Source of the DNA: Escherichia coli
GTDB lineage: Bacteria > Pseudomonadota > Gammaproteobacteria > Enterobacterales > Enterobacteriaceae
Assembly (NCBI RefSeq): GCF_045037415.1
Contig: NZ_CP173440.1
Length of the DNA: 64,000 nt
Reading direction: 5' to 3' (one strand)
In this document: piece after piece, positions 33,001 through 39,000 of the stretch
Position numbering within the stretch: the stretch's first letter is position 1
How the letters are laid out: the number at the start of each line of letters is the position of its first letter
Made by a program: the position numbers

Positions 33001-36000
33001 GTATCATTAATGGCTGCAAAAGCGAAAAACGGAGTGATTGGTTGCGGTCCACACATACCCTGGTCCGCGAAAGGAGAGCAGCTACTCTTTAAAGCCTTGA
33101 CGTACAACCAGTGGCTTTTGGTGGGCCGCAAGACGTTCGAATCTATGGGAGCACTCCCTAATAGGAAATACGCGGTCGTTACTCGCTCAGCCTGGACGGC
33201 CGATAATGACAACGTAATAGTATTCCCGTCGATCGAAGAGGCCATGTACGGGCTGGCTGAACTCACCGATCACGTTATAGTGTCTGGTGGCGGGGAGATT
33301 TACAGAGAAACATTGCCCATGGCCTCTACGCTCCATATATCGACGATTGATATTGAGCCGGAAGGAGATGTTTTCTTTCCGAATATTCCCAATACCTTCG
33401 AAGTTGTTTTTGAGCAACACTTTAGCTCAAACATTAACTATTGCTATCAAATTTGGCAAAAGGGTTAACAAAGCTATGCAATTGACGGTAAAAAGCTTCG
33501 TTCGCTTCGCTTGCTACGCTTCTTACCGCAATTGATAACGGCGTTAGATGCACTAAGCACATAATTGCTCACAGCCAAACTATCAGGTCAAGTCTGCTTT
33601 TATTATTTTTAAGCGTGCATAATAAGCCCTACACAAATTGGGAGATATATCATGAAAGGCTGGCTTTTTCTTGTTATCGCAATAGTTGGCGAAGTAATCG
33701 CAACATCCGCATTAAAATCTAGCGAGGGCTTTACTAAGCTTGCCCCTTCCGCCGTTGTCATAATCGGTTATGGCATCGCATTTTATTTTCTTTCTCTGGT
33801 TCTGAAATCCATCCCTGTCGGTGTTGCTTATGCAGTCTGGTCGGGACTCGGCGTCGTCATAATTACAGCCATTGCCTGGTTGCTTCATGGGCAAAAGCTT
33901 GATGCGTGGGGCTTTGTAGGTATGGGGCTCATAATTGCTGCCTTTTTGCTCGCCCGATCCCCATCGTGGAAGTCGCTGCGGAGGCCGACGCCATGGTGAC
34001 GGTGTTCGGCATTCTGAATCTCACCGAGGACTCCTTCTTCGATGAGAGCCGGCGGCTAGACCCCGCCGGCGCTGTCACCGCGGCGATCGAAATGCTGCGA
34101 GTCGGATCAGACGTCGTGGATGTCGGACCGGCCGCCAGCCATCCGGACGCGAGGCCTGTATCGCCGGCCGATGAGATCAGACGTATTGCGCCGCTCTTAG
34201 ACGCCCTGTCCGATCAGATGCACCGTGTTTCAATCGACAGCTTCCAACCGGAAACCCAGCGCTATGCGCTCAAGCGCGGCGTGGGCTACCTGAACGATAT
34301 CCAAGGATTTCCTGACCCTGCGCTCTATCCCGATATTGCTGAGGCGGACTGCAGGCTGGTGGTTATGCACTCAGCGCAGCGGGATGGCATCGCCACCCGC
34401 ACCGGTCACCTTCGACCCGAAGACGCGCTCGACGAGATTGTGCGGTTCTTCGAGGCGCGGGTTTCCGCCTTGCGACGGAGCGGGGTCGCTGCCGACCGGC
34501 TCATCCTCGATCCGGGGATGGGATTTTTCTTGAGCCCCGCACCGGAAACATCGCTGCACGTGCTGTCGAACCTTCAAAAGCTGAAGTCGGCGTTGGGGCT
34601 TCCGCTATTGGTCTCGGTGTCGCGGAAATCCTTCTTGGGCGCCACCGTTGGCCTTCCTGTAAAGGATCTGGGTCCAGCGAGCCTTGCGGCGGAACTTCAC
34701 GCGATCGGCAATGGCGCTGACTACGTCCGCACCCACGCGCCTGGAGATCTGCGAAGCGCAATCACCTTCTCGGAAACCCTCGCGAAATTTCGCAGTCGCG
34801 ACGCCAGAGACCGAGGGTTAGATCATGCCTAGCATTCACCTTCCGGCCGCCCGCTAGCGGACCCTGGTCAGGTTCCGCGAAGGTGGGCGCAGACATGCTG
34901 GGCTCGTCAGGATCAAACTGCACTATGAGGCGGCGGTTCATACCGCGCCAGGGGAGCGAATGGACAGCGAGGAGCCTCCGAACGTTCGGGTCGCCTGCTC
35001 GGGTGATATCGACGAGGTTGTGCGGCTGATGCACGACGCTGCGGCGTGGATGTCCGCCAAGGGAACGCCCGCCTGGGACGTCGCGCGGATCGACCGGACA
35101 TTCGCGGAGACCTTCGTCCTGAGATCCGAGCTCCTAGGGATCGCCTCAGAAAACGGAATCTATGGTCACTCCCGTTTTTGCAACACCGATTTTGACGATA
35201 AATTGGCTTGCTTGAATCTATCCGGCGTCTGAATGGGATTTTATTCCCGCGCCTCGATGAGTTCCGCGCCTGATGAACCTCCAGAAAATATACGGCTTCA
35301 ATGAGCCTTTCCGTTTTACAGGTTCCTCAACAGGCCGGTGGGCCGTTAGTATCATCAATATCAGTATTCGCAAAACCAGATCAGTGATTCTTTAAACCGG
35401 TGTATTTCTGCCGTTATGCTACATAAGTTTGCTGTCGTGCCGTTAGGGCCCAGGCTATTCTGGCCAGCTTGTTTGCCAGAGCACAAGTGACGACAAAGTT
35501 GCTTTTCCTACACAGTAGATCCCTGACCCAATCGGCCAATTTGCCAGACTGGTGTTCCAGTTTTTGTATGAATACCCTGGCACATTGAACCAACAAAGTT
35601 CGGATCTTTTTGTTACCTCGCTTACTAATTCCCAGCAATGTCGTCCGACCTCCCGTGCTGTACTGTCGGGGTACCAGCCCTGTTGCCGCCGCAAAGTCAC
35701 GACTGCTGGCGTACTGCTTCCCGTCGCCAATCTCAGTTGAAATAGTACTCGCTGTCAGTGTTCCGACGCAGGGAATGCTCAGCAAGCGCTGTCCAATCTC
35801 ATCTTCGTCCAACTTTCGTTTCAACTGGGATTCCAAATCTTTAATCTGCTCAACAAGATAGTGATAATGCTGTTGTAATTTCAGCAATAACTGGCTGAGG
35901 TATAGAGGCAAACTATTGTCCTCAAGAAGGGTACTCAGTCGGCTAATAACGGCAGCTCCTCGTGGAACGCTGATGCCAAATTCCAGCAGAAAAGCATGCA

Positions 36001-39000
36001 TCTGATTGGTTGTTTTTACCTTATCCTGAACCAGGGATTCACGGACACGATGCAGCGCACGCATTGCCTGCTGAGATTCAGTTCTGGGCTGTACAAAACG
36101 CATAGACGGACGCGATGCAGCTTCACAAATAGCTTCGGCGTCGACAAAGTCGTTTTTGTTACTTTTAACGAATGGACGGACAAATTGTGGTGATATCAGC
36201 TTAGGAAAATGCCCCAACTCTTCCAACTTGCGTGCCATAAAGTGAGAGCCACCACAGGCTTCCATTGCGATGGTTGTAGCGGGGCATGTCGCCAAAAATT
36301 CGATTAACTTTGGCCGTGTAAATTTTTTACGGTAAACAGCCTTGCCGCGACGATCTTGGCAATGAATATGGAAAGAGTTTTTACCCAGATCGATACCAAT
36401 GAGCGCAATGTTTTCCATGATAGTTCTCCGAATGAAAGCCTATCCTCAGCATAGTACCGGGAAGGAGGGAGTGACCATCTCATTAAATAAAGCACGCTAA
36501 GCCGTAAGTAAGCGTGCTCCTGTGAAAGCCACAGCTAAAACTGCGTAGTACACATAGAGGTATTTTTTTCTAGATTTATATCGAATTTCGTTATCGAATT
36601 TCGCTTATTATTGATCAACTCGTTGCAGATCATGAAGGCGAAAGTATGACGAATAACCCTACCGATGACAGCAGACCATGGTCGGTCTTTCTTATTTTTC
36701 TGCGGCTTGGATTGACATCTTTTGGCGGCCCCATTGCGCACTTGGGCTACTTCCGCGCCGAATTTGTCACACGGCGGCGCTGGCTCTCCGAACGGAGCTA
36801 TGCTGACTTGGTCGCGCTTTGTCAGTTCTTGCCAGGGCCTGCAAGCAGCCAGGTCGGCATAGCGGTAGGACTGTCTCGGGCTGGATACAGCGGGGCGCTG
36901 GCTGCTTGGGCTGGCTTCACGCTGCCGTCTGCCATAGCCTTGATCCTTTTTGCGCTCGGCATCTCCAGCTATGGCGATTACGTCTCGCAGGGCGCGTTGC
37001 ATGGCTTAAAAGTGGTGGCTGTGGCCGTGGTCGCTCAAGCAGTATGGGGCATGGCGCGTAACCTATGCACGGATGGGCTGCGAGTCACCATCATGGCAAT
37101 TGCTACCTGCGTCGTTTTACTTGTGCCGTCCGCGTGGGGACAGGTTGGCGTGATTGCTATCGCAGGCATCGCAGGCCGGTTATTGTTCAAGCCAGCGAAA
37201 GTTGTTGAGCATGACCCCCTACCTATCACGGTCAGTCACCGGGCCGGCGTGCTTTGGCTCTCGCTGTTCTTTGTCTTGCTGATTGGCCTGCCGGTGTTGG
37301 CCGAACTGATGCCAAGTCAAACCATGGCAATGGTGGATTCCTTCTATCGTGTCGGATCACTGGTGTTCGGCGGTGGTCACGTTGTGCTGCCATTACTGCA
37401 AGCCGAAGTGGTGCCCTCCGGCTGGGTCAACAATGAATCCTTTCTCGCGGGGTACGGGGCAGCTCAAGCGGTGCCCGGCCCTTTGTTCACGTTCGCCGCG
37501 TTTCTTGGTGCCTCGATGAACACCGCCCCGTCGGGCTGGATCGGCGGCATTGTGTGTCTGCTGGCTATCTTCGCGCCCTCGTTCTTGCTGGTCGTCGGAT
37601 CAATGCCATTTTGGGAGCGTTTGCGCCGCAATACAGGCATCCAAGCTGCGCTGGCCGGGATCAATGCCGCTGTAGTCGGCTTGCTGCTGGCCGCGCTGTA
37701 TCAGCCTGTATGGACTAGCGCCATCTTTCAGCCGCAAGACTTCGGCTTGGCATTAGTTGCCCTTGTCGCACTTATGTTCTGGAAGCTCCCGCCGTGGCTG
37801 GTTGTCCTCGGTAGCGGTGCAGCTGGGTGGCTGTTGAGCGTCGCTCTGTGAGGCACAAAAAATGACTGACAAAGACCTCTACGGCGGTTTGATCCGCCTG
37901 CACATCCTTCACCATGCAGCCGAGGAACCTGTCTTTGGGCTGGGGATCATCGAAGAGCTACGCCGACACGGCTACGAGATGAGCGCTGGCACCGTGTACC
38001 CGATGCTGCACGGCCTGGAAAAAAAAGGCTATCTGACCTCACGCCACGAACGCACCGGGCGACGTGAACGGCGTGTTTATGACATCACTGAACAAGGCAG
38101 AACTGCACTTGCTGATGCGAAAACAAAGGTCAAGGAGCTGTTCGGAGAGTTGGTAGAAGGTGGTTGAGTTTTTGCTTCTATGTCAGGTTGAGCTATACCC
38201 TAACTGGATTGTCATTTTCAGAAGACGACTGCACCAGTTGATTGGGCGTAATGGCTGTTGTGCAGCCAGCTCCTGACAGTTCAATATCAGAAGTGATCTG
38301 CACCAATCTCGACTATGCTCAATACTCGTGTGGGCTCTGTTGCAAAAATCGTGAAGCTTGAGCATGCTTGGCGGAGATTGGACGGACGGAACGATGACGG
38401 ATTTCAAGTGGCGCCATTTCCAGGGTGATGTGATCCTGTGGGCGGTGCGCTGGTATTGTCGCTATCCGATCAGCTATCGCGACCTTGAGGAAATGCTGGC
38501 GGAACGCGGCATTTCGGTCGACCATACGACGATCTATCGCTGGGTCCAGTGCTACGCCCCGGAGATGGAGAAGCGGCTGCGCTGGTTCTGGCGGCGTGGC
38601 TTTGATCCGAGCTGGCGCCTGGATGAAACCTACGTCAAGGTGCGGGGCAAGTGGACCTACCTGTACCGGGCAGTCGACAAGCGGGGCGACACGATCGATT
38701 TCTACCTGTCGCCGACCCGCAGCGCCAAGGCAGCGAAGCGGTTCCTGGGCAAGGCCCTGCGAGGCCTGAAGCACTGGGAAAAGCCTGCCACGCTCAATAC
38801 CGACAAAGCGCCGAGCTATGGTGCAGCGATCACCGAATTGAAGCGCGAAGGAAAGCTGGACCGGGAGACGGCCCACCGGCAGGTGAAGTATCTCAATAAC
38901 GTGATCGAGGCCGATCACGGAAAGCTCAAGATACTGATCAAGCCGGTGCGCGGTTTCAAATCGATCCCCACGGCCTATGCCACGATCAAGGGATTCGAAG

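Follow-up and report, generated by a model that had tools for sequence, protein, structure and literature searches.

A probable copy of IS4321 in the split terminal inverted repeat of a truncated chrA transposon, with predicted guide segments for its target

Background

In four members of the IS1111 group (ISEc11, ISPa11, ISKpn4, and ISPst6), an RNA from the non-coding region (NCR) downstream of the transposase gene (tnp) co-purifies with the transposase (Siddiquee et al., PMC11187229). This RNA, termed seekRNA, is required by the insertion sequence (IS) in order to transpose, and changed segments retarget it; the guide segments overlap at the insertion point, the 5' one being the match to the top strand, and the long NCR downstream of tnp is the layout characteristic of the group (PMC11187229). 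RNAs resembling seekRNAs were predicted in 93% of IS1111 elements (Durrant et al., PMC11208160). Here we describe an IS, most probably IS4321, in a stretch of 64,000 nucleotides from Escherichia coli (NCBI RefSeq assembly GCF_045037415.1, contig NZ_CP173440.1; hereafter "the window", the whole of that stretch, with positions numbered from its first letter), where it splits IRLchrA, the 38-bp terminal inverted repeat (IR) of a truncated chrA transposon, and we compare its NCR with the target that it occupies. The configuration and the target specificity are already published: IRLchrA disrupted by IS5075 (PMC5034289) and IRLchrA interrupted by IS4321R (PMC6737455) have been reported, and the "chrA region" has been attributed to a Tn21-like transposon of the Comamonas plasmid pCNB1 (PMC6737455).

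Results

The borders of the insertion were read from the sequence and checked with a script. The outer 22 bp of the IR (GGGATCGCCTCAGAAAACGGAA, IRLchrA-5') lie at 35137-35158 and the inner 16 bp (AATAAAGCACGCTAAG, IRLchrA-3') at 36486-36501, both on the plus strand, and the element between them occupies 35159-36485 on the minus strand, exactly 1327 bp. When the two flanks are joined, they give the 38-bp IR GGGATCGCCTCAGAAAACGGAAAATAAAGCACGCTAAG, with nothing lost and no target duplication. Each half is found once in the 64 kb (chance expectation, 0.01 and 0.03), and the halves are contiguous in pCNB1 and in about 1,200 plasmid records. A T stands on both sides of the junction, and the flanks can just as validly be divided 21+17 (IS = AATGAG...AGAT). 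The preliminary description of this DNA had placed a 1327-bp element between 22 and 16 bp of one IR and had staked its reading on flanks that rebuild a Tn21-type IR; the borders hold to the base, and the IR was indeed rebuilt.

The minus strand of the IS reads TAATGAG-ATGGTCACTCCC ... GGGAGTGACCAT-AGA. The subterminal inverted repeats form a perfect 12-bp pair, the left one (ATGGTCACTCCC) at 36467-36478 with seven outer bases (TAATGAG, 36479-36485) and the right one (GGGAGTGACCAT) at 35162-35173 with three (AGA, 35159-35161), both given for the minus strand. Between them, also on the minus strand and thus reading from the transposon interior outward, lies the transposase gene (35414-36418, 334 aa), preceded by 67 nt of non-coding sequence and followed by an NCR of 255 nt (35159-35413). 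The transposase carries a DEDD/RuvC-like N-terminal domain (PF01548, E = 1.8e-20) and a C-terminal PF02371 domain (E = 4.5e-20), scores 341 bits against a cut-off of 140 with NCBIfam NF033542 ("IS110 family RNA-guided transposase"), and shows the GL-P----TG motif as GLVPRQYSTG. The transposase domains, the subterminal repeats, the long NCR downstream of tnp, and the absence of a target-site duplication place the element in the IS1111 group, and its earlier assignment to the IS110 family was correct. A -35-like hexamer, TTGCAA, lies just inside the right repeat (35178-35183), and abutted IS ends would, as read from the sequence, form TTGCAA-17 nt-GATAAT across the junction. Partridge and Hall reportedly described in 2003 an element of 1327 bp with 12-bp subterminal repeats, 7/6 and 3/4 outer bases, and the circle junction AGATAATGAG. 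The element is present in a single copy in the window.

The preliminary description had named the element IS5075, and the name was examined by megablast against plasmids. More than 5,000 records were hit in three identity bands, of which those of 97-100% were annotated as IS4321 and that of 93.4% as IS5075. Against the IS4321 copy of plasmid R751 at 10134-11460, 1323 of 1327 nt (99.70%) and all 334 residues of the transposase were identical, and nucleotide identity to the second R751 copy (13404-14729) was 96.83%. Against IS5075, represented here by the copies so annotated by NCBI (loci L002 and L025) and not by the ISfinder entry, it was 93.44%; the R751 copy and an IS5075-annotated copy were 93.14% identical to each other. 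The original host of IS5075 is pRMH760 (KF976462). Isoforms in ISfinder are more than about 95% identical in nucleotide sequence, and the R751 copies of IS4321 lie above 95% and IS5075 lies below it; IS4321 and IS5075 are themselves said by Partridge and Hall (2003) to be 93.1% identical, in agreement with the 93.14% obtained here. The two elements are easily confused: in length, ends, target, and orientation IS5075 does not differ from the element in the window, its transposase differs at only 5 of 334 residues, and it occupies the same IR in other plasmids (L025; PMC5034289). An identity of 93.44%, against 99.70% and an identical protein for the R751 copy of IS4321, nevertheless makes the name IS5075 highly improbable. 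We are confident that one intact and presumably active IS4321 (IS110 family, IS1111 group) sits in IRLchrA, the left IR of the truncated chromate-resistance transposon. The error in the name has no mechanistic consequence, as length, ends, and target are common to both IS and their proteins are nearly identical.

Two segments of the NCR match the target (Siddiquee et al. being the model for their arrangement). The first, AAAACGGAAA (IS 1169-1178), is complementary to one strand at target positions 0 to +9, and the second, TATTTTC (IS 1196-1202), 17 nt further downstream, to the other strand at positions -3 to +3. In the putative RNA, guide 1 would be UAAAACGGAAA (35308-35318, minus strand; IS 1168-1178), of which 10 nt can pair with the target strand in tnp orientation at IR positions 14-23, and guide 2 would be GUAUAUUUUCU (35283-35293, minus strand; IS 1193-1203), of which 7 nt (UAUUUUC) can pair with the opposite strand at IR positions 20-26. 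Both matches span the insertion point, on opposite strands and in the order published for IS1111 seekRNAs, and none of 5000 shuffles reached both. Together they cover a footprint of 13 bp, IR positions 14-26 (AAAACGGAAAATA). Between IS4321 and IS5075, the NCR core (IS 1108-1290) differs at 2 of 183 positions (1.1%) versus 77 of 1005 in tnp (7.7%). In a consensus structure of seven elements obtained with RNAalifold, the two guides share one internal loop, below which lies a long basal stem; in the window, the predicted target-binding hairpin of the seekRNA extends over 35265-35337 (minus strand) and consists of the basal stem, an ACCU/AGGU stem, the internal loop, and a GGC/GCC cap. Two other candidates were set aside. 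An 8-nt match of the NCR (AAGCCGTA) to sequence immediately interior to the IR was taken to be coincidental because other occupied targets do not have it, and CUCAUU of the cap hairpin, which is complementary to AATGAG of the left end and was considered as a donor guide, is not conserved in three relatives with the same left end.

A protein search followed by contig look-ups gave six relatives, with transposases 70-80% identical to that of IS4321, the same ends, and different flanks; the loci L018, L019, and L022, which had no clean ends, were left out. In the alignment of the NCRs, the stems are conserved and the two guide columns vary between elements to match their own flanks. Guide 1 matches its own right flank over 10, 10, 7, 9, 8, 10, and 6 nt (IS4321 first), versus at most 5 nt with unrelated targets, and guide 2 matches its own junction over 7, 8, 8, and 8 nt in IS4321 and three of the six relatives. 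The relatives in E. coli (L013-L015, protein P0103, 73% identical) and Providencia (L020-L021, P0120, 70%) share the TAATGAG...AGA ends and are inserted in the T-run of hairpins that resemble terminators (one such site is AAAAGCCCGATTACCAGTCGGGTTT|TTTTGTGCC); their guide columns (GCACAAAA / GGTTTTTT) match that site. In Serratia, Morganella, and Klebsiella (L006-L012; P0052, P0060, and P0081, 77-80%), the right flank is always TTCCTAACCAT and is matched by guide 1 (UGGUUAGGAA), and the left flanks vary and are unmatched by guide 2; two of these loci adjoin transposase genes of the IS91 family (Y2), and the target of this set may be the end of an IS91/ISCR-type element.

The rebuilt IR was compared with those of Tn21 in R100, with which it shares 36 of 38 positions (IRtnp) and 35 of 38 (IRmer), all differences lying at outer positions 4-8. 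It is identical at all 38 positions to an intact IR in pCNB1, and the IS-less IR together with chrA and padR (1741 bp) is 100% identical to pCNB1 17215-15475. There, the IR ends a complete transposon of 5,416 bp (chrA-padR-tnpR-tnpA) that is flanked by a 5-bp duplication, GATCT, and has its inverted partner IR (GGGGTCGTCTCAGAAAACGGAGAATAAAGCACGTTAAG) at 11800-11837, beside tnpA and tnpR (L004). By way of pCNB1, the features of the Tn21 subfamily (a 38-bp IR of the form GGGG...ACGCTAAG, tnpA with tnpR, and a 5-bp duplication) are therefore all present, and the preliminary description, which had spoken of a Tn21-family IR and of an old transposon boundary, was right on both counts. Of this transposon, the window retains one end only, in 36502-38204 (plus strand) beyond the IR, with chrA at 36646-37851 and padR/orf98 at 37862-38167 as identified with Pfam; it lacks tnpR, tnpA, and the second IR. 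The homology to pCNB1 ends at 38204, 5 bp before the IRt of the integron (38210-38234, TGTCATTTTCAGAAGACGACTGCAC), and IS6100 occupies 38333-39212. The division of the IR into 22 and 16 bp should end its use as a transposase-binding end, and the splitting of an IR has been stated for similar cases to abolish its use in transposition (PMC5034289). The earlier claim that the insertion inactivates the IR is thus a reasonable one, and it is moot here: the loss of the IR has no effect because the cognate tnpA and tnpR and the second IR are already gone.

To compare empty and occupied sites, a synthetic IS-less junction with 600 bp on each side was searched against the plasmid collection. The empty sul1-Δorf5-IR-chrA junction was matched in a single piece at 100% in many plasmids, with 1,236 records covering at least 80% of the query, versus about 342 plasmid records of the occupied junction; the empty junction is thus about 3.6 times commoner, and about 22% of the junctions, or about one fifth, carry an IS. 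The same 22-mer and 16-mer bracket an IS of the type of the first R751 copy (R751-a; the window and L003), of the second (R751-b; L023), of the R751-b type with 10 additional bp at the left end (L024), and IS5075 (L025). The copy in L024 (NZ_MG516909.1, E. coli pEc1675) is an IS4321 of 1337 bp, the left end of which reads TAATGAG-AGA-TAATGAG-ATGG...; the extra bases, TAATGAGAGA, correspond to the outer bases of the two ends joined together, as they would be in a circle junction, and could be a junction remnant left as the scar of an aberrant integration or excision.

These data bear on the history of the site. A 5.4-kb transposon like that of pCNB1 would have landed in orf5 of the 3'-conserved segment (3'-CS) of a class 1 integron, its tnpR-tnpA-IR half would subsequently have been lost beside IRt-IS6100, and IS4321 would then have entered the surviving IR. 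That the IS insertion postdates the assembly of the module follows from the commonness of IS-less junctions and the presence of three IS types at the same position, and the sequences suggest that insertion into IRLchrA probably occurred more than once. The reverse order, in which the chrA transposon brought the IS into the integron within its IR, so that the IS was inherited and did not insert on this plasmid lineage, is unlikely. A split IR beside Δorf5 could in principle be old, and IS4321 was first found on R751, an IncP-1 plasmid as is pCNB1; but the splitting of its IR should keep a transposon from moving, the IR of pCNB1 is intact, the identical IS-less junction outnumbers the occupied one by the factor given above, and three IS types fill the one site.

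The junction ...AAAACGGAA|AATA... and the orientation of the IS are identical in 11 copies in six target contexts (the window, the two R751 copies, L002, L003, and L023-L028), and the flank matches of the listed hits agree; the preliminary view that this is the canonical target of IS4321/IS5075 is thereby upheld for position and orientation. Around the insertion point, a divergent but occupied Tn3-family IR (L026/L027) shares only AAACGGAA|AATA with IRLchrA. A 13-bp consensus for IS5075 sites has been proposed independently, and transposition was observed during an outbreak (PMC8269217). A degenerate pattern search of the window detected a Tn1721/TnAs1-type 38-bp IR at 27801-27838 (GGGGAGCCCGCAGAATTCGGAAAAAATCGTACGCTAAG), which is intact and uninterrupted, has the same orientation as IRLchrA and 27 of 38 positions in common with it, and has three mismatches in the 13-bp footprint. 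Searches of the window that allowed up to three mismatches detected no further Tn21-type IR, and IRLchrA cannot pair with the Tn1721-type IR because both point the same way. In pCNB1, the IR at the tnpA end has one mismatch (A to G) in the footprint and is unoccupied; the IR at the chrA end, which matches the footprint perfectly, is also unoccupied.

We consider it somewhat more probable than not that the guides of IS4321/IS5075 can be read from this copy, and that the 13-bp footprint, rather than the whole IR, would decide which Tn3-family ends and accidental sites (Klebsiella ureC) are used; a dead transposon end would then be a live and repeatedly used landing pad, apparently hit here independently by three IS variants, with Tn1721-type ends spared. 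Several points weigh against this. A seekRNA has been shown for relatives, and for this copy of IS4321 it is likely by analogy; in PMC11187229 and PMC11208160, mention of IS4321 is confined to a target logo or a citation. Folded as a single sequence, the NCR does no better in minimum free energy than shuffled sequences (z = -0.71), compensatory changes are seen in 3 of 44 consensus pairs, most pairs being invariant, and a scan of 34900-36800 with Rfam 15 at E ≤ 1 gave no match. In the P0060/P0081/P0052 group, guide 2 matches its own left flanks over 5, 3, and 3 nt. The lack of an insertion in the Tn1721-type IR was observed once and does not amount to a test, and the different IS types at IRLchrA could have come there partly by recombination between IS copies. 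As the structural covariation is thin and the single-sequence fold does not stand out from shuffled ones, the modelled seekRNA architecture is plausible rather than proven.

Some of these points would also suit a different mechanism, in which the transposase itself recognises the DNA of the IR and the matches in the NCR are coincidental or serve only end recognition: the guide RNA of IS4321 is a prediction from sequence, the z-score of the fold is not significant and compensatory pairs are few, and guide 2 tracks its target poorly in one group of relatives. We regard recognition by the protein as quite improbable. The seekRNAs of four IS1111 members are both essential and reprogrammable (PMC11187229), the guide columns change with the target while the transposases stay 70-80% identical, conservation of the NCR core far exceeds that of tnp, and the divergent occupied IR keeps little beyond the 12-13-bp footprint. 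Selection of the target by the two guides is accordingly the account that we use below; it follows a family rule published in 2024, which the assignment of guides to IS4321 extends in a small way.

To the left of the split IR lies Δorf5 (34960-35137, plus strand), in which the first 177 or 178 nt remain of orf5, a GNAT gene of 501 bp in the 3'-CS of class 1 integrons. Over 1597 bp, the 3'-CS matches that of R100 at 100%, and orf5 follows the R100 gene from its ATG for 178 nt and diverges where the IR begins. The truncated orf5 and a junction of the 3'-CS to chrA-padR through the IR had both been noticed earlier, and both stand, the cut falling after nt 177/178 and the right flank being chrA-padR by Pfam. 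The frame of Δorf5 is open through the outer half of the IR and 74 nt of the IS (34960-35232) and gives a hybrid open reading frame (ORF) of 90 aa, which is annotated in related plasmids as the hypothetical protein WP_004883563.1 and is almost certainly a by-product. On the other side, IS6100 is followed by mphR-mrx-mph(A) up to an IS26, in the published linkage of chrA, IRt-IS6100, and mph(A).

The Tn1721-type IR is overlapped by the 3' end of a Tn3-family tnpA of 988 aa (27834-30800, minus strand). An IS26 (30823-31642, with 14-bp ends) abuts the 5' end of this tnpA, where tnpR and res would be expected, and intI1 comes next (31826-32839). Further copies of IS26 are located at 42445-43264, 44284-45103, and 59710-60529, and an isolated IS26 end is present at 55133-55146; the region is a mosaic rich in IS26. 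Near the start of the window, another Tn3-family transposase ORF (345-3305; 986 aa) scores 1026 bits with NF033527, and neither a Tn21-type nor a Tn1721-type IR was found beside it with the patterns used.

Discussion

By analogy with its relatives, IS4321 would excise as a circle with abutted ends (AGA|TAATGAG), as has been shown for them. The DEDD transposase would bind a short seekRNA released from the 255-nt NCR that follows tnp, and the two guides in its internal loop would base-pair over the insertion point, each with the opposite target strand from the other. Such pairing on two strands would lead the IS to integrate at one position, in one orientation, and without duplication. If this is true, retargeting of the IS to the Tn1721-type IR would mean guides and donor flanks that fit AATTCGGAAAAAA, with guide 1 pairing with AATTCGGAAA and guide 2 with GAAAAAA.

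The current understanding of these elements is unchanged, and the value of the locus lies in annotation and in plasmid epidemiology, on a multidrug-resistance plasmid. The label of the element should read IS4321, not IS5075. The split IR is the boundary of the widely spread resistance module Δorf5-IRLchrA-chrA-padR-IRt-IS6100-mph(A), and the presence or absence and the type of the IS at this fixed site, where at least three IS types occur, are usable as a lineage marker. The locus would also show clearly, in a natural setting, how an IS can insert site-specifically into a "safe harbour" under the guidance of an RNA, and IRLchrA and the Tn1721-type IR would offer a positive and a negative target of the guide rule in one molecule.

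Compared with known systems, the element is closest to IS4321 of the IncP-1β plasmid R751, two copies of which bound Tn4321 and have the same length, ends, insertion point, and orientation, with no duplication. The window copy differs from that at R751 10134-11460 by 4 nt, of which the change at IS position 19 makes the pair of subterminal repeats perfect here and the other three are silent changes in tnp; it sits in the IR of the chrA transposon, whereas the R751 copies sit in the IRs flanking Tn4321. The sister element IS5075 agrees with the window copy in length, ends, target, and orientation as well as in the conserved NCR core with both guides, and it occurs in this IR; with 93.4% nucleotide identity and five amino acid differences, it has a separate ISfinder name. 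The "chrA region" (IRLchrA-chrA-orf98) matches pCNB1 at 100% and has Δorf5 and IRt-IS6100 as neighbours, as described; the parent transposon in pCNB1 is complete, whereas the window has the chrA-padR end only, without tnpR, tnpA, and the second IR. With the seekRNA systems (PMC11187229) and the bridge RNAs of IS621/IS110 (PMC11208160), IS4321 shares the DEDD transposase and the long NCR downstream of tnp, as well as two short segments directed against opposite strands that overlap at the insertion point, and natural reprogramming. It differs from them in that its RNA is a predicted one and that no donor-binding loop of the IS621 type was identified, and in its target, which is a transposon IR and not a REP, attC, or chromosomal site.

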